Assembly (NCBI GenBank): GCA_013824245.1
Contig: PNNN01000049.1
Coordinates: forward strand, 13,202 to 77,201
DNA length: 64,000 nt
DNA from: Chlorobiaceae bacterium
GTDB taxonomy: Bacteria; Bacteroidota; Ignavibacteria; UBA10030; SZUA-254
Reading direction: 5' to 3'
Below are positions 48,311-56,503 of the stretch, one piece after another. The position numbers and the translations under genes are program-made. The notes below the pieces were generated by a model, which had not been told where the DNA came from, made no database searches, and worked only from the letters and a program-made list of their open reading frames with translations. How positions within the stretch are numbered: position 1 is the stretch's first letter; each line of letters begins with the position of its first letter.

Positions 48311-48340
48311 TGCGCCGGAGGCGCATCCGCCTCCGGCGGA
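48311..48340. repeat. Two tandem 15-nt GC-rich mini-hairpins (may act as the mltD terminator)
   Basis: TGCGCC-GGA-GGCGCA then TCCGCC-TCC-GGCGGA, between a T-run and AATTTTT. They can alternatively fold as one 11-bp stem, CGCCGGAGGCG-CATC-CGCCTCCGGCG. Confidence 0.7.
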
Positions 48341-48356
48341 AATTTTTAATTGATCC

Positions 48357-48479
48357 GGAAAGGTGTCTGAGTTCCGCCAAAAGAATGGCGGATAAAGGTT
48401 GTCCCGAAGGGATTCCTTCGGAAAAAGATCCGGTCTCTTAGCTGTTAAAACAGGTGAAAAAGTTAGCGCAGAAGATTGG
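48357..48479 (+). pseudogene. Degenerate tRNA-Ser 5' portion (acceptor 5' strand through anticodon arm) with hairpin inserts in the D-loop and anticodon loop
   Basis: GGAAAGGTGTCTGAGT [TCCGCC-N8-GGCGGA] TAAAGGTTG [TCCCGAAGG-GATT-CCTTCGGA] AAAAGATCCGGTCTC [insert] GAAGATTGG, versus live-gene GGAGAGGTGTCTGAGTGGTTGAAAGAGCCGGTCTCGAAAACCGG. Confidence 0.7.
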
Positions 48480-48573
48480 CATACGTTTTTGATAAAATGT
48501 GTTGAACAATAGGGTTTCGTTTCTAAAGAAAAGATGTATATTTTTACTTTTTCATTTTTACTTTTTAATTGTT

Positions 48574-48632
48574 GGAGAGGTGTCTGAGTGGTTGAAAGAG
48601 CCGGTCTCGAAAACCGGTGTAGGCGCAAGTCT
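48574..48632 (+). pseudogene. Clean 59-nt copy of tRNA-Ser(CGA) nt 1-59 (left attachment-site repeat of the island)
   Basis: Identical to 55824-55882. Identity stops inside the variable arm, and the integrase gene follows 88 nt later. Confidence 0.85.
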
Positions 48633-48673
48633 TATTCACTTTCTAATTTGATTTTCCGCATTTAAAATTCCTC

Positions 48674-48694
48674 TGGTTACCAATGTGGTTACCA
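48674..48694 (+). promoter_or_regulatory. Direct TGGTTACCA repeats (candidate integrase arm-type sites)
   Basis: TGGTTACCA at 48674-48682 and 48686-48694. Related GTGGTTGC / TGGTTACC motifs lie at 55751-55771 near the other island end. Confidence 0.35.
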
Positions 48695-48719
48695 CTTGCC
48701 TTGAAAAGCGAGGTTCACC

Positions 48720-49739
48720 ATGTTTCTTTCTAAGCGTTCCAACGGTATCTACTATCTCTGGTATTTTGATGAAGGTGGTAGAAAACATAAAGTTTCTACG
48801 GGCTGTAATCTCAAATCCGATGCTGTTAAGTTTCTCAGAGATTTTAATGAGAATGCTTCTTACCGAAAATCCCGCATTACTCTTAAAACCCTCAAAGAAT
48901 TTCATTCCGATTATCAAACATATTCAAAAAGTGTTCATACCTTAAAAACTCAACAATCGATTGATAGTGCATTTAGAGAGCTTCAAAGGATTGTAGGTGA
49001 TATAATGCATAATAAAATCGGAATTCGTGAAATAGAAAGCTTCCTTGCTCAAAAGAAAGCTGAAGCATCTGAGTGGACAGCAAGAAAATATTATATCTCT
49101 CTTGCAAGTGCTTTCGAAACAGCGAAGCGGTGGAATTACATTTCAATAAATCCATTTCGTAAAGTTCAAAAACCCAAAACAAGTGAGGTTCAACCTGTAT
49201 ATCTCAATAAAGAGGATATGACATCTTTGCTGGGAAAAGTAACCGATATCCAATGCAAGAATTTATTTCTGGTAGCTGTATTGACTGGATTAAGGCTTGG
49301 TGAGCTTCTAAATCTTCAATGGAGCGATATAGATTTGATTAAAAAAGTTATCTACATAAAGAACAGAGAAACCTTTTCAACCAAGAACCGGAAAAATAGA
49401 GTTGCTCCAATAAATGAACAACTTCTCAACGTACTTATTTTAATGAAAGAGAATGCAAGTTCCGAAATCGTTTTCCATTCTAAGGGGAAACATCTCAAGC
49501 CAAATTGGATTTCAAAAGCGTTTAAAGGTTATGTTCTTAAAACTGGATTAAATGAGAAACTCCACTTCCACAGCTTACGGCATACATTTGCTTCATGGTT
49601 AGTTCAGGATGGAGTTTCTTTGTACGAGGTGCAGAAGTTACTTGGGCATTCAAATATATCGGTTACTCAGGTCTATTCTCATTTACAGCCGGAAACATTA
49701 CACTCAACTGTGAATAAGATTTCTTTGCAATTAAATTGA
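48720..49739 (+). CDS. int: Tyrosine recombinase / phage-type integrase
   Basis: C-terminal catalytic region with RLGELLNL ... HSLRHTFASWL ... LLGHSNISVTQVYSH (R, H-x-x-R, H, Y). Confidence 0.92.
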   Translation: MFLSKRSNGIYYLWYFDEGGRKHKVSTGCNLKSDAVKFLRDFNENASYRKSRITLKTLKEFHSDYQTYSKSVHTLKTQQSIDSAFRELQRIVGDIMHNKIGIREIESFLAQKKAEASEWTARKYYISLASAFETAKRWNYISINPFRKVQKPKTSEVQPVYLNKEDMTSLLGKVTDIQCKNLFLVAVLTGLRLGELLNLQWSDIDLIKKVIYIKNRETFSTKNRKNRVAPINEQLLNVLILMKENASSEIVFHSKGKHLKPNWISKAFKGYVLKTGLNEKLHFHSLRHTFASWLVQDGVSLYEVQKLLGHSNISVTQVYSHLQPETLHSTVNKISLQLN

Positions 49740-49851
49740 TTTACTTCCTGAATATTTGTACATTTTGGGGAATTTATATTCTCACAAATGTTCACTGAGT
49801 TATTATATCAAACTTTAAATTTATCTTGGGGATAAATAGGAAAGGTAAAAT

Positions 49852-50265
49852 ATGAAGTATTTTTTAAGTGTAATATCAGCGATTATGGTTCTATTGGTTA
49901 GTTGTTCAAAAGAACCAACTGTTGGAGAATGGTACGAACATATACCAACCAAGGAGAGAGTTAAGGTTGAATTTGTCGGAGATGGGTTTGCTGTTGGGAA
50001 AAAGTATTTATGGAAGTTGGAGTTGGCAAAAGAACATAGAGATAAAATGGTTCACGAACTTGATAGTCTTAATACCCTGCTTTTTTGTGATGAAGGCGAT
50101 AAAGAATGGCGTTTAAAATTCTACAATGAAGACTTGGAGGAATGTGCGCTCTGGGATGTCGGCAGTTCAGATAAAAGATATGTAGTTGTAAATCTCAAAT
50201 TGTTTCATCTCAAATTGTTTTCTTTGGAGAAATTCAATGCAGATTTTGCAAGGATACTTCGATGA
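49852..50265 (+). CDS. Hypothetical lipoprotein (island cargo)
   Basis: Lipobox LVSC; 137 aa. Confidence 0.6.
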   Translation: MKYFLSVISAIMVLLVSCSKEPTVGEWYEHIPTKERVKVEFVGDGFAVGKKYLWKLELAKEHRDKMVHELDSLNTLLFCDEGDKEWRLKFYNEDLEECALWDVGSSDKRYVVVNLKLFHLKLFSLEKFNADFARILR

Positions 50266-50301
50266 AAAAGAAAAACAAATCATTCAAGCGGAGGTAAAAA
50301 T

Positions 50302-50712
50302 ATGAAGTATTTTATTATCCTCTTTCTAATTGTTTTATTTTATAAGCCACTCAACGGACAAGACAAATCGAAAGAATTAAGTTATCAGAAAAGTTTTATG
50401 GAATATGAGGACACAAAAAAAGATAAGGCATCAGCACTTATTTGGCTGTCAATTATTCCGGGCGGTGGTATGTGGTATGCAGAGACAAACGGTTTATTTT
50501 TTCTTGGAAGTGAAATCGTTTTAGCTTCTTTATATATAGGTACAAAAGAAAATTTCTGGTTGGCGGGTTTGACTGCTATGAAATTATATGAGGTGTATTA
50601 TACATTCAGCGTGGTTGATGATTATAACCAGAACTTGCTCAAAGAATTGAAAATGGATTTATCATATAACAATCAACGCGGAATAGTTTATTCACTTTCT
50701 TTTAATTTTTAA
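50302..50712 (+). CDS. Hypothetical membrane protein (island cargo)
   Basis: Signal peptide plus two hydrophobic helices; GGAGG SD. Confidence 0.6.
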   Translation: MKYFIILFLIVLFYKPLNGQDKSKELSYQKSFMEYEDTKKDKASALIWLSIIPGGGMWYAETNGLFFLGSEIVLASLYIGTKENFWLAGLTAMKLYEVYYTFSVVDDYNQNLLKELKMDLSYNNQRGIVYSLSFNF

Positions 50713-50726
50713 ATGAACAAGGAATT

Positions 50727-51206
50727 ATGAAAAATTTAATAATTATCATTTTATCTTTGATCTTAATTTCCTGTGGACATTCATATTTCCCCGCATCTGT
50801 TAGGGAAATAGACAACACAAAAACATTTCAAATGAGTTATGAGCAGACATGGATGAAAATTATCGATTGGTTTGCTCTTCATAATACACCAATCAAAACA
50901 ATTGATAAAGCTTCTGGCTTGATTGCCAGTGATTATGAACTTGGATCAACATCGAAGTATTGCGACTGCGGAAGAGTGAATAGCGATTTCTTTCTTAGGT
51001 TGTCAATCGAAGAGTATTCCGGGAATATCAATATTCTTGTCCGGAAATTATCCGATGATACAACACGAGTAACGATATCTACTTTTTTCAGTGCTGTAAA
51101 AAAGATTTATGACAACATGGATCACAGATACCTCCGCGACGAGAAAATTAAATGTTATTCGAGCGGATTGTTAGAACAGGATATATTTCATTCGATATCA
51201 AAATGA
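50727..51206 (+). CDS. Hypothetical lipoprotein (island cargo)
   Basis: Lipobox LISC; 159 aa. Confidence 0.6.
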   Translation: MKNLIIIILSLILISCGHSYFPASVREIDNTKTFQMSYEQTWMKIIDWFALHNTPIKTIDKASGLIASDYELGSTSKYCDCGRVNSDFFLRLSIEEYSGNINILVRKLSDDTTRVTISTFFSAVKKIYDNMDHRYLRDEKIKCYSSGLLEQDIFHSISK

Positions 51207-51313
51207 TGCGTAAGAAAACTAAACCATTCAAGGGAACTGATAAGATCAATGTGAAAGACGTAACCGTTGGCGCCGATCATAAAACCGTGTATGGCAAAAA
51301 CTCCGATGTGATA

Positions 51314-51466
51314 GTTGGCGGGTTTGACTGCGATGAAATTATATGAAGTGTATTATACGTTCAGCGTGGTTGATGATTATAACCAGAACTTGCTCAAAGA
51401 ATTGAAAATGGATTTATCCTACAATCAACAAAGGGGCGTGGTTTATTCGATCTCTCTTAATTTATG
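51314..51466 (+). pseudogene. Startless duplicate of the 3' third of gene 50302..50712
   Basis: Direct repeat of 50559-50712. It encodes ...AGLTAMKLYEVYYTFSVVDDYNQNLLKELKMDLSYNQQRGVVYSISLNL* with no upstream start. Confidence 0.7.
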
Positions 51467-51686
51467 AGTACGCTTTACTTCAAAGGCAATTGGAAGGTAT
51501 TACACATCTTTTTCAATCAAAGATAGTTAAAGATTTATTTGCATTCTCCTTATATCTCTTCGTATATTTAATAAAGCAATTTCCGAATATATTGCTGACA
51601 AAAATTTAATCCTCTACTCGTTCACTTTGGGTGAAACCGATGCAATCGGTTCGGAAGCGAGTGGGGGATTTTTATTATAAGTCATC

Positions 51687-52307
51687 ATGAAAAAGAAACA
51701 TATTGTTCCTTACGATGGAGAACTTCTTACGATTGATACTATTGGCAAAGAAGATGAAGGAAAAACATTAGCATTTCGTAATCAGGTTCACAATTGTTGT
51801 CAGAAGAAATTTGATAGTTTCTTTAAAACATTTTTGAATATGTGCGCAATTTCGGAGAAAGGAGAACTTGAACAACAGAAGAATGATTTATATGTTAACT
51901 TCTTTCTGAAAGTTAATGAAAGAATATTTCAAATTATTACGCCAGCGACAGAAGATATTACTGATGATTATAAGCGTGGTAAAAAAAGATTAGAGATGCA
52001 AGAGAGAATAGACGTTGAAACATTAGTCAATGAAACACCGCTGATTTTATCACCATTGTTAAAAAATATTCTGAGGAAAAATCAGGATCGGTCAACGCAG
52101 ATGAGTGGGAAAAAAGTTTCAAAAGAACGAGAAGAATTATACTCGATAATTCACAATGAATTGAACGCTGAGGGGAAAAAACCAAAATCTAAAAGAAGAA
52201 GAAAAAGTACAATCATAAATAATTTATGCAACAGTAATCCATTATTCAAAAATGAAAATCCTACCAAATTGAGAAAAGCATACGATAGGATTGAAAGCAA
52301 GAAATGA
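51687..52307 (+). CDS. Hypothetical basic protein (island)
   Basis: 206 aa with a Lys/Arg-rich C-terminus. No family was recognised. Confidence 0.55.
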   Translation: MKKKHIVPYDGELLTIDTIGKEDEGKTLAFRNQVHNCCQKKFDSFFKTFLNMCAISEKGELEQQKNDLYVNFFLKVNERIFQIITPATEDITDDYKRGKKRLEMQERIDVETLVNETPLILSPLLKNILRKNQDRSTQMSGKKVSKEREELYSIIHNELNAEGKKPKSKRRRKSTIINNLCNSNPLFKNENPTKLRKAYDRIESKK

Positions 52308-52316
52308 AAAATAGTT

Positions 52317-52359
52317 TCTACTATACCTATAGTAGAATTCTACTTATGCCATAGTAGAA
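52317..52359. promoter_or_regulatory. Two adjacent palindromic operator-like sites sharing the half-site TCTACT
   Basis: TCTACTATA-CC-TATAGTAGA (52317-52336) and TTCTACT-N7-TAGTAGAA (52338-52359). Confidence 0.4.
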
Positions 52360-52507
52360 ATATCCTTTTATAGATTAAAGTATATCGAGTGAGAATTAGT
52401 TACTCAATTACTTTAGCTTAAATTGAAATATGAGCCGAAATCTTGATTGAATATGCTAAAGGTTCAATTAAGCTCTTTCGGTTTTTTATTCCTTAAGGAG
52501 TAAAAAT

Positions 52508-52930
52508 ATGTTTCAACAAATATTAACAGTAACACGGTCAGGCAAAGTATTACTTACCCTTCCAAATAAAGAGTATAAATCACGCCGGCATATTGGAGAT
52601 GTTATCGAAAACACTCTCCATGTTAAACGTGATCCCACAAGGCATTTCTTTAATCGATTTAATGGATATGGTTTCTGCTATGAGTTGATGAGGGATGGAA
52701 GTTTTGAAAGGGTTGTCGTTCACCTTCCCTTCGGTAAAACACTTGTAACTACAAGGAAGCACATTTTAGCGAAAGGGAAAATACTGAATTTTCAAAAGAA
52801 CAAACTGGAAAAGCAGATATATTTATCATTAGATGATTATGGGCTTGACAAGGCGAGAGAAAGTGAGATGAATAGTATTCCAACTAAACTAATCGATCCA
52901 CAGCTCTCAATTTTCGGAGGTATCCAATGA
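52508..52930 (+). CDS. Hypothetical protein (island), overlapping the helicase start
   Basis: AAGGAG SD; 140 aa; 4-nt overlap (ATGA) with the next gene. Confidence 0.6.
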   Translation: MFQQILTVTRSGKVLLTLPNKEYKSRRHIGDVIENTLHVKRDPTRHFFNRFNGYGFCYELMRDGSFERVVVHLPFGKTLVTTRKHILAKGKILNFQKNKLEKQIYLSLDDYGLDKARESEMNSIPTKLIDPQLSIFGGIQ

Positions 52931-54282
52931 ATATTTCGAGACAAGATATTGAAGAAAGAATAATTGGACAGCTTCTCTTCGATGGTAAGAAAGCAACATT
53001 GGAAGCGTGTAGCATCGTTGATGAAATAGATTTTTCGGATCCGGCTTGTTCAATTCTCTTTGGTGTTTGCGTTGCACTCGTTTCACAACATAAAAGTGTT
53101 GATGCTTTGAGTGTTCATCAGTTTTTGCAGAATAATACCGAGAAGCTTGGCACTCATTTCCAGAAATTATCATCTTTGACAGATGCAAAAACAACAATTA
53201 CTAATTTGATCCTGAAAGCTACAGACATCTCTTGCATGTATGCAACAAGAGGTTACTCAAATGATTTAATCATCAACTGTAAATACCTCAGACAAGAGAA
53301 TGAACGAAAGAAAGCTCAAGAGATAATTTTATCAGCCGGAACGAAGCTGAATGATGGAATTGAAGTTGAAACGGTAATCGAAGAGGCAACAAAAGAACTG
53401 ATTACACTTTCAGCGAAATCACAAAACATTAAAAGCTACACTCATTTGGAAGATGCTTTTAATGAAGCAATAAAGGAAACAGAGGATGAAATCGCTGGCA
53501 AGGTTGTAAGATTATCAACAGGTTTCTCAGAGCTTGATAGTATTATCTATGGACTTGAAAAAGGTCGATTGTACTGTATTGCAGCGGAGGAAAAGATCGG
53601 TAAAAGTTTATTGAGTTATCAGATCGGTTTGAATAGTGCTACGAAAGGAAATCCATCAACCATTATTTCAATGGAGATGAAAGCTTCAGAGATTGCCAAA
53701 CGATTTGCAGGAGTGAACAGCGGTCAAGAAGCATTGCATCGATTGAATGCACTCAAAAAATTCAAAGCTGAAATTGGCAGTTATCCTCTTTTCATTCGAG
53801 ATGGTTCAGCTAATCAAGGGAAGGTGTTTATCACAACCCATAAGCTATATGCTGAAAAACGGATTGAGCTTTTGATTGTTGACTATCTTCAGTTGATCGA
53901 ATTGCAAGGAAGAGATAGAACGAATGATGTGAACGAATTTGTGAGTAAGCTGAAAGGCATGGCAATGGATTTAAATATTCCTATCGTTCTTATCTCGGCT
54001 GTATTGAATAAACAGTTAAGCTATAGAAACAATAGGAAACCAACTCCGGCTGACTTGCGTGATACAGGCAGGCTTGCCAATGATGCTGACTGTTTGATAT
54101 TCATCTGGAAACCTGATGAACAAGATGAGAGCTACCTTGAGTTATTTGTTGCACGTTCACGGTACTCAAAACTTGGAAGGATCGGTTTATCTCTCAATCC
54201 AGAGACATTAAAACTCTCACAGACAGAACTTCGAGATTTGGATGGTAGTTCTAACCAGTCAACAGAGTTTAAACGGTTCTGA
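52927..54282 (+). CDS. DnaB-like replicative helicase
   Basis: DnaB N-terminal domain pattern (IEERIIGQLLFDG...), TGFSELDSII, Walker A variant EEKIGKS, IVDYLQL, and DLRDTGRLANDADCLIFI. Confidence 0.8.
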   Translation: MNISRQDIEERIIGQLLFDGKKATLEACSIVDEIDFSDPACSILFGVCVALVSQHKSVDALSVHQFLQNNTEKLGTHFQKLSSLTDAKTTITNLILKATDISCMYATRGYSNDLIINCKYLRQENERKKAQEIILSAGTKLNDGIEVETVIEEATKELITLSAKSQNIKSYTHLEDAFNEAIKETEDEIAGKVVRLSTGFSELDSIIYGLEKGRLYCIAAEEKIGKSLLSYQIGLNSATKGNPSTIISMEMKASEIAKRFAGVNSGQEALHRLNALKKFKAEIGSYPLFIRDGSANQGKVFITTHKLYAEKRIELLIVDYLQLIELQGRDRTNDVNEFVSKLKGMAMDLNIPIVLISAVLNKQLSYRNNRKPTPADLRDTGRLANDADCLIFIWKPDEQDESYLELFVARSRYSKLGRIGLSLNPETLKLSQTELRDLDGSSNQSTEFKRF

Positions 54283-54290
54283 GGTGATAT

Positions 54291-54926
54291 ATGCAGGGAT
54301 GGATAAAACTTTATCGATCTACTCAAGGAAATGAGTTCTACTTTTCTGAAAGGTTTACCAAAGCACAAGCTTGGATTGACCTTTTACTATTGGCAAATCA
54401 TAAACCGGCTACAATCTTTCTTCGAGGTGTTGAGGTGCATCTTGGTAAGGGTGATTTAGCATACAGTCAAATTTCACTTGCGAAACGATGGAAATGGAAT
54501 GAACGAACCGTCAACAAGTTTTTAACTATGCTTGAAAAGAGGCAAATGATACAGAGCAGAAAATCCAACATAACGACCGTGATTTCGATAATTAACTACA
54601 CTTTGTATCAAAGCAGTACAGAACAGAGTACAGTACAGAATACAGAGCAAAGTACGAGCAGAATACAGACAGACAAGAATGATAAGAATGAAGAGAATGT
54701 TTTTGTTGAGCAGCTAATATCCTACTTAAAAGAAAACAATATTCACTTTGATGAAGGTAATTTAAGGGGAAGGATCACCAAAGCCCTGAACACCTATGAA
54801 GAAAATATTATCCGATACGCTGTAAACGATGCAGTAGAGAGTTGGAAGAAAAACGGGAACGAGGGAAATTTTGTCGCATATTTATTCACTATTTTGGAGC
54901 ATAACTATCAAGAGGCTGAACCATGA
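54291..54926 (+). CDS. Replication-organizer / DnaD-like winged-helix protein (tentative)
   Basis: N-terminus WIKLYRS...AQAWIDLLLLAN...GDLAYSQISLAKRWKWNERTVNKFLTMLEKRQMI resembles phage replication-protein wHTH domains. Confidence 0.5.
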   Translation: MQGWIKLYRSTQGNEFYFSERFTKAQAWIDLLLLANHKPATIFLRGVEVHLGKGDLAYSQISLAKRWKWNERTVNKFLTMLEKRQMIQSRKSNITTVISIINYTLYQSSTEQSTVQNTEQSTSRIQTDKNDKNEENVFVEQLISYLKENNIHFDEGNLRGRITKALNTYEENIIRYAVNDAVESWKKNGNEGNFVAYLFTILEHNYQEAEP

Positions 54927-55114
54927 ATGAAGATACTACCGATAACAGAGACAAGATTGAAGATATATTTTTATTCACAGCTCAAGAGGTGAGCGAAAAA
55001 GCATACGAGAAATATAGCTCAGGCGAAATATCACAAGCTGAATTGGCTGAAATCTATCACCTGTTAAAACATTGGACATTAGAAAGCGAACAACTCCTAA
55101 AGATATTACAATAA
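54923..55114 (+). CDS. Hypothetical 63-aa protein (island)
   Basis: 4-nt overlap with the upstream gene; acidic. Confidence 0.45.
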   Translation: MNEDTTDNRDKIEDIFLFTAQEVSEKAYEKYSSGEISQAELAEIYHLLKHWTLESEQLLKILQ

Positions 55115-55129
55115 TTTGAAGGACATACA

Positions 55130-55546
55130 ATGAAAGACACGCAAACAAAGAACCGATTTATTGAACTCCGGTCACAGGGTATTAGCTACGAGAAGATAGC
55201 AACGGAACTCAAGGTATCTAAACAGACATTGATAAATTGGAGTAAAGAATTACAGCTTGAAATACTGAACTTACGTGCAATCCAACTTGAGGCACTTCAG
55301 GAAAAATACTTCCTTACAAAAGAAAAGAAAGTCGAGTTCATTGGCAATATATTGAATTCATTGAAGGCTGAGGCTGACAAACGAGATTTATCTAAACTAT
55401 CAGATCGAGAACTTTTTGAACTCATTTTGAAATATTCAGAGAAGTTAGACAAGGAAATAGTACCAGTTACTTTCATGGCTGAAGAAGAAAGAAGTTTAAT
55501 CGATTATGATACGACTGTAACGGATAGGAAAACATGGTCAGCGTAA
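55130..55546 (+). CDS. HTH-domain protein with a coiled-coil tail (regulator or small-terminase-like; unresolved)
   Basis: GISYEKIATELKVSKQTLINW is a helix-turn-helix. The rest is predicted helical. Confidence 0.5.
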   Translation: MKDTQTKNRFIELRSQGISYEKIATELKVSKQTLINWSKELQLEILNLRAIQLEALQEKYFLTKEKKVEFIGNILNSLKAEADKRDLSKLSDRELFELILKYSEKLDKEIVPVTFMAEEERSLIDYDTTVTDRKTWSA

Positions 55547-55694
55547 TGGAGACCGTTTCTTGACCCTTTTTTGACTGGTTGAGTTCTCTGACACCAAAAA
55601 AAGAGATTGAGTTTATTTCTGGAATTTCGTATATTTATATCGACTTAAAGAGCAACTTCCACAAAAGAAGAAGAAATCGAACTCGTAAGAGTTG

Positions 55695-55740
55695 AACGCC
55701 AAGAATAAAGGTGTGGAAGCCTGCTCACTTGGCGTTTTTA
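55695..55740 (+). terminator. Rho-independent terminator inside the island's right end
   Basis: AACGCCAAG ... CTTGGCGTT stem followed by TTTT. Confidence 0.6.
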
Positions 55741-55823
55741 ATTTTGACAGGTGGTTGCTTTTTTGGTTACCTTGAAGTAATTAAAACAGGATTTTCACGA
55801 AGGTCAAATTATGAATTTTGTTT

Positions 55824-55910
55824 GGAGAGGTGTCTGAGTGGTTGAAAGAGCCGGTCTCGAAAACCGGTGTAGGCGCAAGTCTATCGAGAGTTCGAATCTC
55901 TCCCTCTCCG
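55824..55910 (+). tRNA. tRNA-Ser (anticodon CGA), class II with a long variable arm; no encoded CCA
   Basis: Acceptor GGAGAGG/CCTCTCC, anticodon arm CCGGT-CTCGAAA-ACCGG, variable arm TGTAGGCGCAAGTCTATC, T arm GAGAG-TTCGAAT-CTCTC. Closely resembles E. coli tRNA-Ser. Confidence 0.95.
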
Positions 55911-55913
55911 CTT

Positions 55914-56180
55914 ATGTGCTCTGTATATGTGATTTGGAGTGAAAAGCTGAAGAAGCGATATATTGGATCGACTGAGGATGTTGATAAAAGATTGAATCAG
56001 CATAATAGCGGCAAAACTCCATTTACTAGCAGAGGAATTCCATGGAATAAAATTCATGTCGAAAAATATAGTTCAATCATTGAAGCACGAGCTAGAGAGA
56101 GATTTTTGAAAAGCGGTAAGGGAAGAGAGTGGTTAGATAAAATGTACCCTGACCTGAGAAAGAAAGATGTTGTATGTTAA
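55914..56180 (+). CDS. Small stand-alone GIY-YIG nuclease-domain protein (88 aa)
   Basis: VYVIWS...RYIGSTEDVDKRLNQHNSG...PW...EARARERFLKSGKGREWL is the GIY-YIG/URI pattern. The ATG lies 3 nt after the tRNA discriminator. The ORF-track N-terminus (55818-55913) is the tRNA. Confidence 0.8.
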   Translation: MCSVYVIWSEKLKKRYIGSTEDVDKRLNQHNSGKTPFTSRGIPWNKIHVEKYSSIIEARARERFLKSGKGREWLDKMYPDLRKKDVVC

Positions 56181-56193
56181 AAGAGCCGGTCTC

Positions 56194-56248
56194 TCAGCCA
56201 GAGGCTGATGCGCCTTCCGCCATTAAGATAGGCGGACAAGTCGGCGCA
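56194..56248. repeat. 55-nt hairpin block inserted between anticodon nt C34 and G35
   Basis: TCAGCC-AGAG-GCTGA, then TGCGCC-[T TCCGCC-ATTAAGATA-GGCGGA CAAGTC]-GGCGCA (one hairpin nested in the loop of another). Confidence 0.85.
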
Positions 56249-56283
56249 GAAAACCGGTGTAGGCGCAAGTCTATCGAGAGTTC

Positions 56284-56313
56284 TGAGCCTACGGCTCATC
56301 CGCCTAAGGCGGA
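56284..56313. repeat. 30-nt hairpin block inserted between T-loop nt C56 and G57
   Basis: TGAGCC-TAC-GGCTCA then TCCGCC-TAA-GGCGGA. Confidence 0.85.
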
Positions 56314-56503
56314 GAATCTCTCCCTCTCCGCCAAACTGTGTTCCGATAAATCGGAACTTCGTTTGGCAAGTATAACCAACGAAGCTCTGAAGGAGCGTAG
56401 TTGGTCATCTCCGCCGATGTTTTAAAAAAATAATTTATTCTAACAGTTTAAATATTTTAAATCATTTCAATTATTTCAATCCTAAAATCATTCTAACTGA
56501 ATT

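Follow-up and report, generated by a model that had tools for sequence, protein, structure and literature searches.

A displaced tRNA-Ser(CGA) copy interrupted by dispersed GC-rich mini-palindromes beside a putative minimal GIY-YIG nuclease gene

How does a truncated tRNA gene copy come to carry GC-rich hairpins precisely in its anticodon loop and T loop, and to be otherwise almost unchanged? The question is raised by a locus in a 64,000-nucleotide stretch of Chlorobiaceae bacterium DNA (contig PNNN01000049.1, positions 13,202 to 77,201; this whole stretch is called the window below), where a preliminary description made from the letters alone had pointed to the segment 56176–56330. We find that this segment is a displaced, non-functional 3' two-thirds of tRNA-Ser(CGA) that forms the downstream direct repeat of a cassette built around a GIY-YIG open reading frame (ORF), and that its hairpins are precise, duplication-free insertions of a dispersed palindromic family that prefers T-Y|R-A(A) sites and is concentrated at such cassettes. 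We lean, without great firmness, towards reading the whole as a selfish tRNA-linked GIY-YIG cassette in which dispersed mini-palindromes, possibly mobilised by the nuclease, have filled a tRNA repeat that is dispensable. The ORF at 55914–56180, which the preliminary description overlooked, is the organising feature of the window locus and of 80 related loci. The features concerned are the following:

55824–55911, + strand: live tRNA-Ser(CGA) gene (ARAGORN; Rfam RF00005, 59.6 bits)
55914–56180, + strand: stand-alone putative GIY-YIG nuclease ORF, 88 aa plus stop, UPF0213/Slx1-like clade (PF01541)
56176–56193, + strand: remnant piece, tRNA nt 18–35, one mismatch (G21→A) by comparison with the live gene
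56194–56248, + strand: block 1, at anticodon 34|35; TCAGCC-AGA-GGCTGA at 56194–56208, TGCGCC...GGCGCA at 56209–56248
56216–56240, + strand: TCCGCC-N9-GGCGGA then CAAG, nested in the TGCGCC...GGCGCA loop of block 1
56249–56283, + strand: remnant piece, tRNA nt 36–70, 100% identical to the live gene
56284–56313, + strand: block 2, at TTC|GAA of the T loop; 30-nt double hairpin, TGAGCC-TAC-GGCTCA plus TCCGCC-TAA-GGCGGA
56314–56333, + strand: remnant piece, tRNA nt 71–88 plus encoded CCA; original tRNA 3' end with native downstream flank

When 56176–56193, 56249–56283 and 56314–56330 are joined, the resulting 70 nt equal nt 18–87 of the live tRNA-Ser(CGA) at 55824–55911 with one mismatch, as had been claimed; the mismatch, G21→A, changes TGA to TAA, either of which is a stop codon for the upstream ORF. 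Block 1, 55 nt long, separates the first anticodon base from the second (34|35); block 2, 30 nt long, follows TTC in the T loop. Each junction reads TC|GA, cannot be slid and has no target duplication, and on these points too the preliminary description was accurate. Each block is built of perfect 15-nt palindromes in series (T, five GC-rich bases, a 3-nt loop, the complement, A), and block 1 contains the additional nested unit, so that hairpins do sit within the loops of other hairpins, as had been noticed. The units are otherwise as first described, except that the loop of the first one is the 3-nt AGA and not AGAG. Single-strand folding of 56176–56330, a check that had been proposed, left all tRNA stems intact, with the hairpins at loop positions (−104.9 kcal/mol, z = −6.2 relative to shuffled sequences).

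Could the segment nonetheless be a tRNA gene, perhaps a split one? A functional tRNA gene was rejected, since the remnant has neither a complete cloverleaf nor both acceptor strands: even with the blocks removed it lacks tRNA nt 1–17, the RF00005 scan of 56176–56330 gave no tRNA match even at E ≤ 1, and ARAGORN calls only 55824–55911 here and nothing at the remnant. A tRNA intron (group I at 34|35, or archaeal with a bulge-helix-bulge) was rejected as well, the 30–55-nt inserts having no Rfam intron match; in contrast to the situation with an intron, the insert-bearing copy is the truncated one and the live gene is never the one interrupted.

The 3' ends of the two copies tell which is the original. 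The live gene does not encode its CCA (..CCGC|TTATG), whereas the remnant does and also retains the hairpin that natively lies downstream; the same ..CCGCCA plus downstream hairpin is found at L001 and L005. It is therefore in the remnant that the gene's original 3' end survives, and the comparison points to its displacement by the cassette. Relatives date the blocks. A homologous block occupies the block 1 position in L005, L008, L010, L021 and L221, and in L221 (GIY protein 77% identical) the anticodon block is present and the T loop is uninterrupted, so that block 2 is a later, precise insertion at TTC|GAA. The JGI contig L220, which is ~99% identical and comes from another sample and another assembler, carries the identical blocks at the matching positions, which excludes an assembly error; the comparison with related genomes that the preliminary description had called for thus upheld the arrangement. 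The DNA downstream of tRNA-Ser also holds a second hairpin family, with stems around a conserved loop GAAGC..GGAGCGTAG and a GTTCCG..CGGAAC hairpin inside CCAAAC..GTTTGG (window 56334–56425, L220 1010–1055, L001 10450–10590 and L005 10327–10360); in L001 the loop of the GTTCCG..CGGAAC hairpin is filled with ~70 nt of further GC hairpins.

What is the gene between the two copies? The 267-nt ORF starts 2 nt past the live tRNA, stops within the D-loop sequence of the remnant and is the only gene between them. Its product matches PF01541 with E = 4.7e-15 (56.1 bits against a cut-off of 22.6) and has no additional domain; the catalytic Tyr, Tyr, Arg, His and Glu are all conserved, and Y5, Y16, G18, R26, H30 and E62 are invariant among 19 relatives. 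The best matches in the PDB are the UPF0213 proteins 1zg2 and 1ywl, followed by the structure-specific nuclease Slx1, and by these similarities the ORF encodes a putative nuclease of the GIY-YIG superfamily, in its UPF0213/Slx1-like minimal clade. An identical protein (100%) is on record from a Chlorobiaceae bacterium metagenome-assembled genome (MAG) under the NCBI name 'endonuclease', and the nearest genomes in the protein profile scan are Ignavibacteria. Look-ups by exact product for the GIY protein and for the window's DegT protein gave no hit, whereas four relatives led to contigs. A 2006 phylogenomics paper on the GIY-YIG superfamily describes prokaryotic Slx1-like proteins as minimal and notes one fusion that hints at RNA metabolism. 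A classical GIY-YIG homing endonuclease of the I-TevI/Seg type was rejected: the protein is 88 aa long, has no C-terminal DNA-binding domain and scores 21.2 bits against TIGR01453, below the cut-off of 56. As to the disrupted target and the spread to empty alleles that homing would entail, the spare tRNA copy is broken by hairpins but the live tRNA is intact, the clades are tRNA-specific across phyla, and no pair of alleles differing in the presence of the GIY gene itself was found. A tblastn search with the GIY protein found no homologue in 50,697 phage records and none in a plasmid collection.

In L220 an extra A in an A-run (L220 683–690, window 56053–56059) frameshifts the GIY ORF, and a second GIY start, truncated, lies past the remnant at L220 962–1010. 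From this sequence the L220 locus was once a tandem array, and its GIY gene is now decaying.

Is the window locus an isolated case? A protein profile scan of one genome per species yielded 80 further loci, 81 distinct loci with the window. They come from Ignavibacteriota, Bacteroidota, many Patescibacteria lineages (the candidate phyla radiation, CPR) and Marinimicrobia, and from MAGs labelled Gammaproteobacteria, Planctomycetia, Verrucomicrobiae, Acidobacteriota, Omnitrophota and Dehalococcoidia. A tRNA gene lies within 120 bp of the GIY ORF in 68 of the 81 loci, always on the same strand (68/68) and across a gap of 2–40 nt; 5 more loci stop at a contig edge. At least 15 tRNA isoacceptor families adjoin GIY ORFs, and the opposite flank of the ORF is usually a partial copy of that tRNA, which GC-rich hairpins interrupt or in part replace, so that the cassette usually leaves an intact tRNA and a partial duplicate. 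The remnants keep differing parts of the tRNA (5' halves, 3' thirds), with differing extents and on differing sides. A GC hairpin is found within 300 bp of the GIY ORF in 76 of the 81 loci, compared with 20% of control windows. Tandem remnant-plus-GIY arrays exist, the largest having eight copies in the cultured Psychroflexus curvus CAK1W. The clades of GIY proteins track both tRNA isoacceptor and hairpin sequence type, even between phyla: one clade combines tRNA-Pro(GGG) with GTCGCC-TNA-GGCGAC hairpins, and a CCTGCCTG-YCGG-CAGGCAGG type is common to Marinimicrobia tRNA-Leu loci and a Salinimicrobium tRNA-Arg locus. The tRNA linkage, partial copies, tandem arrays and clade-tRNA match are together the signature of a mobile tRNA-associated cassette and are unlike a housekeeping gene. 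At E ≤ 1e-10 the GIY family comprises 7,159 clusters at 50% identity, and in about one third of the top representatives the gene call is extended N-terminally through tRNA or hairpin DNA (peptides SAKGGSASGG, PPKAD and IRLRRR). At L062 10239–10400 two hairpin-bearing units without a GIY gene, each consisting of A, tRNA nt 14–25, GTCGCC-TTA-GGCGAC and nt 32–75, come directly after a live tRNA-Pro; hairpin-bearing tRNA pieces can thus multiply without an intervening GIY gene.

Where in the remnants do the hairpins enter? Comparison of remnants with their live tRNAs gave 29 distinct clean insertions at 20 loci, of which 25 are strictly within D, anticodon or T loops and 4 are at a stem/loop boundary; none of the 29 is in a stem, variable arm or acceptor, and none duplicates a base at its junction relative to the intact tRNA, for which reason a miniature inverted-repeat transposable element (MITE) was rejected. 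The loop location expected by chance is 26% (binomial 2e-11, although the events are not all phylogenetically independent). All 8 anticodon-loop events fall within the anticodon triplet, and 9 of the 10 T-loop events follow TTC. However, in the tRNAs concerned the motif T-Y-R-A (TYRA) is itself almost confined to loops (D GTT|GAA, anticodon CTC|GAA, T TTC|GAA). The remnants have 22 occupied and 26 empty TYRA sites in loops and 0 occupied and 5 empty ones outside them (Fisher p = 0.07), and 8 insertions are at loop positions that are not TYRA. The earlier statement that every discontinuity lies in a loop and none in a stem therefore stands as a count, apart from the 4 edge cases, but it is confounded with T-Y|R-A(A). 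Similarly, the first of the three explanations then offered, insertion at single-stranded loops, comes closest in that an insertion process is involved, but loop and motif are inseparable as its target.

The hairpins themselves are, contrary to the earlier impression, not peculiar to tRNA remnants. A search of public contigs for the 30-nt double hairpin alone found 14 sites in viral contigs and at least 129 in metagenomes, mostly away from tRNA and GIY genes and often within long ORFs. The unit form is 15 nt (T-S-N-G-C-C N3 G-G-C-N-S-A), usually paired into a 30-nt near-palindrome; its stem varies in sequence (TCCGCC, TCAGCC, TGCGCC, TCTGCC), and the stem positions that the search pattern left free are complementary in 98–100 of the 101 distinct elements listed. 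The flanks of 141 dispersed copies listed have the consensus T 81%, Y 82% | R 85%, A 80%, A 53%. About half of the listed copies are deep within long stop-free ORFs, and some stand in frame right after an ATG. Thirty-nt pairs in this last position were seen at L148 1201, 3820 and 8420 (three in one contig) and at L175 218, where the pair would add the N-terminal decapeptide Cys/Ser-Ala-x-Gly-Ala/Gly-Ser-Ala-x-Gly-Gly. The preliminary description had set its idea against a REP/MITE-like family scattered in any context, including stems and coding DNA; the family is indeed scattered, also in coding DNA, whereas no tRNA-stem insertion was seen. Some 9% of dispersed sites are at the apex of a larger stem (≥6 bp), compared with 1.9% of controls, when offsets are allowed. 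A rule that the elements always sit at the apex of a larger hairpin was dropped, larger stems being only a minority signal and a zero-offset complementarity test showing nothing. A snap-back origin of TCCGCC from the tRNA-Ser 3' end (..TCCGCCA) was dropped also, as the first loop base is not consistently A and the TCCGCC stem flanks many other tRNAs. One distinct type of unit, YCCGCC-N3-GGCGGR-CAAG, is marked by its conserved tail of 4 nt; it is found repeatedly in different phyla, mainly in D loops (L025, L032, L034, L052, L053 and L059, the last with a tandem triple), and occurs in the window at 56216–56240.

Are hairpins and nuclease gene nonetheless connected? Pair density is 0.53/kb within 400 bp of GIY genes (48 pairs) and 0.0028/kb (3 pairs) in the other 1.06 Mb of these loci, a ~190-fold enrichment over the adjoining DNA. 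Units occur at 1.05/kb near GIY genes, 0.21/kb near 38 GIY-less tRNAs and 0.073/kb elsewhere. Of the 679 TYRAA sites in the window only those of the remnant are occupied, and the window's hairpin units of this family are all in or adjoining tRNA remnants. The link is an association only, the same kind of evidence as that which tied the repetitive extragenic palindromes (REPs) to RAYT.

The window contains further tRNA-Ser copies that bear on these points:

48311–48340, + strand: lone 30-nt double hairpin, TGCGCC-GGA-GGCGCA plus TCCGCC-TCC-GGCGGA, at TTTTT|AATTT
48357–48479, + strand: decayed 5'-half remnant, tRNA nt 1–44, older than the 56176–56330 remnant
48572–48632, + strand: truncated tRNA-Ser 5' copy, nt 1–59 plus 2 nt, 100% identical to 55822–55882

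The left-hand remnant at 48357–48479, to which the preliminary description had also pointed, is real and has two D-loop inserts of 24 nt each (48373–48396 at 16|17 and 48401–48424 at 20|21) and a decayed anticodon-loop insert of 33 nt (48438–48470 at 35|36). The 16|17 insert is common to L008 and the 20|21 insert to L221, so some inserts are old and inherited. The insert at 48401–48424 belongs to a group of small 22–24-nt double hairpins with 4-bp stems (TCCC-GAA-GGGA plus TTCC-YTC-GGAA), also seen at L221 737–760 and at L011 10595–10616 and 10824–10845, which have the purine-loop then pyrimidine-loop layout of the 30-nt pairs. The lone double hairpin is 17 nt upstream of this old remnant, and its flank GGCGGAAATTTTTAATTG is identical in the viral contig L088. 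Relative to L220 it is probably a simple insertion, and only probably, because in the alignment the native tRNA upstream region, homologous to L220, is that upstream of 48574 and not that upstream of 48357.

The third copy belongs to an integrase island. An integrase attachment (att) repeat was rejected for 56176–56330, where no integrase is encoded between the live tRNA and the remnant, and the description fits 48572–48632/55822–55882 with the integrase at 48720–49739 instead. This 7.2-kb island (48633–55821) is bounded at both ends by a perfect 61-nt repeat (tRNA-Ser nt 1–59); its tyrosine integrase adjoins the truncated 5' copy and the live tRNA is at the opposite end, so that the island supplies the tRNA 5' part and upstream DNA and not the usual 3' part. 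The left repeat has the native upstream region and is hairpin-free, although it contains D-loop and anticodon target sites. The island also encodes a DnaB-like helicase (52927–54282) and includes a 150-nt direct repeat (50559–50708 and 51314–51463, 89% identical) that overlaps small lipoprotein-like ORFs, and it is absent as a whole from the close strain L220.

How might the arrangement have arisen? For the tRNA repeat, a long target-site duplication and a tRNA part carried in by the cassette were both considered. The hairpins enter at T-Y|R-A(A) sites, which in tRNA-Ser are GTT|GAA, CTC|GAA and TTC|GAA. As insertion into the live gene would be lethal, insertions would survive only in the dispensable copy. 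We infer that the neighbouring GIY-YIG nuclease may make the break that admits the hairpins, preferentially in cis, in a relation like that between the RAYT transposase and REP. The inserts could in turn favour the cassette by taking cleavable sites out of the spare copy, and they would split the 70-nt direct repeat into 18-, 35- and 17-nt pieces, which may be too short for the recombination that deletes the cassette.

Several observations weigh against the selfish-cassette reading. Among the 143 dispersed pairs listed, only 6 are within 500 nt of a GIY ORF by profile hidden Markov model (HMM), and few are near a tRNA; mobilisation by the nuclease would therefore have to act in trans. The live tRNA retains all putative target sites, and a nuclease that cuts them would cut an essential gene. 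Activity and specificity of the GIY protein are themselves putative. In the remnants 26 loop TYRA sites are still empty, and with just 5 non-loop sites a loop preference is inseparable from the motif. Hairpins in several clades stand in place of a stem strand and not in a loop, which simple insertion does not explain. The correlation between clade and hairpin type is confounded by host phylogeny, and one hairpin in L220 has an uncompensated stem-breaking substitution, so structure was not maintained there; in that locus the GIY gene is dead and the hairpin structure drifts.

A bolder form of the same idea, which we put forward tentatively as less probable than the selfish cassette as such, is a two-part mobile system of a new kind made of the minimal GIY-YIG nuclease and the 15/30-nt palindromes. 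A hydrolytic nuclease specific for structure or for T-Y|R-A, encoded beside a tRNA gene, would open the target sites, and self-folding double hairpins would enter the break by copying or ligation, no target sequence being duplicated. Such a system would be a functional analogue of REP/RAYT on a different enzyme fold, ranging over CPR/Patescibacteria, Ignavibacteriota, Bacteroidota, Marinimicrobia and others; tRNA genes would serve it as a universal landing pad, and tRNA loops would be where it inserts by preference. Somewhat more doubtful is the converse, that the GIY gene is uninvolved and an independent REP- or RPE-like family (the latter after the Rickettsia palindromic elements), moved by another enzyme or by repair, has passively colonised a remnant that is simply neutral DNA with three perfect T-Y|R-A-A sites. 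Most listed dispersed pairs agree with this in having no such gene nearby (67 of the 75 with enough flank have neither GIY gene nor tRNA; 137 of 143 have no GIY gene by HMM), as do the viral-contig copies, 0 of 14 of which are near a GIY gene, and the TYRA target alone predicts the loop positions. It does not account for the ~190-fold enrichment of pairs at GIY genes, given that the adjacent DNA also holds intergenic TYRA sites, for the lower unit density at GIY-less tRNAs (0.21 compared with 1.05 per kb), for the integrase-made copy at 48572–48632, which has suitable sites and no insert, or for a hairpin type that tracks the GIY clade.

Explanations at the level of RNA fare worse. We consider it unlikely that the tRNA promoter drives a joint transcript of tRNA, GIY ORF and remnant and that the remnant, 3' of the ORF here and 5' in other loci, serves as stabiliser, processing barrier or terminator of the GIY mRNA, the loop hairpins keeping or extending its stems. 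The shared strand (68/68) and short gap (2–40 nt), the hairpins directly 5' or 3' of the GIY ORF, a fold much stabler than that of shuffled sequences with every tRNA stem retained, and the complementarity kept in stems of varying sequence are what this would predict. Yet the blocks are not followed by a U-tract, and the remnant contains no predicted terminator; its extent and side differ among relatives; decay in the old copies and L220 is uncompensated, and the dispersed copies inside ORFs are left unexplained. A tRNA-mimic decoy or scaffold RNA under selection, for instance a hairpin-blocked pseudo-substrate acting as RNA antitoxin, is very improbable. Inserts in anticodon, T and D loops, near-identity of the remnant to the live tRNA and tandem arrays beside a nuclease gene, which recall type III toxin-antitoxin loci, would suit it, but no remnant has both acceptor strands, relatives retain non-overlapping tRNA parts with arms at times replaced outright, and both the remnant at 48357–48479 and L220 have decayed, in L220 to a broken stem; the conserved scaffold RNA that the preliminary description had offered as its second explanation is contradicted by the same facts. 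Its third, deliberate inactivation of integrase crossover sites in the spare copy, we regard together with an assembly artefact as the least credible of all. The anticodon loop and the T loop are the classical integrase sublocations in tRNA genes, and the two blocks do coincide with them. However, no integrase lies between live tRNA and remnant, the window's own island crossed over elsewhere (nt ~59) and left its repeat at 48572–48632 hairpin-free, and 80 integrase-free loci have the same architecture; against an artefact, two independent assemblies agree.

If the association of selfish cassette and hairpins holds, a large family of ~80–100-aa proteins annotated no further than 'GIY-YIG nuclease family protein' (>7,000 clusters) gains a biological context. 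The mitochondrial double-hairpin elements (DHEs), the mechanism of whose mobility has been open since the 1990s, would have a bacterial counterpart, and the question would be testable, since there is a candidate enzyme and Psychroflexus curvus CAK1W is a host in culture. Annotation problems such as ORF calls that run through tRNA and hairpin DNA, or pseudo-tRNAs split by hairpins, would be explained, and in-frame 30-nt inserts would be seen to add Ser/Ala/Gly-rich decapeptides to proteins. Neutral tRNA duplicates are, moreover, natural recorders of insertion specificity.

How does the locus compare with known systems? A literature search of incomplete coverage turned up no account of minimal GIY-YIG genes linked to tRNAs, nor of double hairpins in bacteria, and the tRNA-GIY-hairpin architecture is widespread and apparently undescribed. 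RAYTs are HUH/Y1 enzymes, and the REP/RAYT systems (REPtrons) of Proteobacteria are the closest in logic: short dispersed palindromes, often paired, are concentrated around a presumed mobilising nuclease gene, and most copies are far away from it. The repeat-flanked gene here is instead a hydrolytic GIY-YIG enzyme and not a Y1/HUH RAYT, the gene-proximal copies are within tRNA-gene duplicates, and many copies are inside long ORFs. According to one account REPs are 20–40 nt long with a GTAG or CGTC head (PMC3733652); the present units are 15 nt, start with T[CG]NGCC and have no GTAG/CGTC tag in the 101 distinct elements listed.

In gene content the nearest system is T4 SegB, a free-standing GIY-YIG enzyme in phage tRNA clusters, in which a GIY-YIG gene lies among tRNA genes and promotes its own inheritance. 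Seg proteins are ~200 aa or more and have a DNA-binding domain, whereas the protein here is 88 aa and catalytic domain only; to our knowledge hairpin inserts have not been described for Seg loci. According to a 2026 paper (PMC13096335), SegB drives segmental amplification of tRNA loci, and to that extent it recalls the tandem remnant-plus-GIY arrays. Tyrosine-integrase tRNA islands likewise leave a partial tRNA duplicate beside an intact gene, as in the window at 48572–48632/55822–55882, but the GIY cassette has no integrase, and its duplicates vary in extent and are interrupted by hairpins, unlike the uninterrupted island duplicate here.

In form the nearest elements are the DHEs and GC clusters of fungal mitochondria, paired GC-rich hairpins in AT-rich DNA. 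They are found in intergenic regions and structural RNA genes, among them rRNA genes, with presence/absence polymorphism, and their identity across species suggests mobility by a mechanism left unexplained (PMC10085805; PMC3787672). They are mitochondrial and unrelated in sequence, and these papers report no tie to tRNA duplicates or to a specific nuclease gene; the shape and the presence/absence polymorphism are found here too, a resemblance in form only, from which common descent is not claimed. The Rickettsia palindromic elements, finally, are ~100–150 bp long and confined to Rickettsia, whereas the present units of 15/30 nt occur in many phyla; the likeness is that 30 nt correspond to 10 codons and that copies stand right after an ATG.

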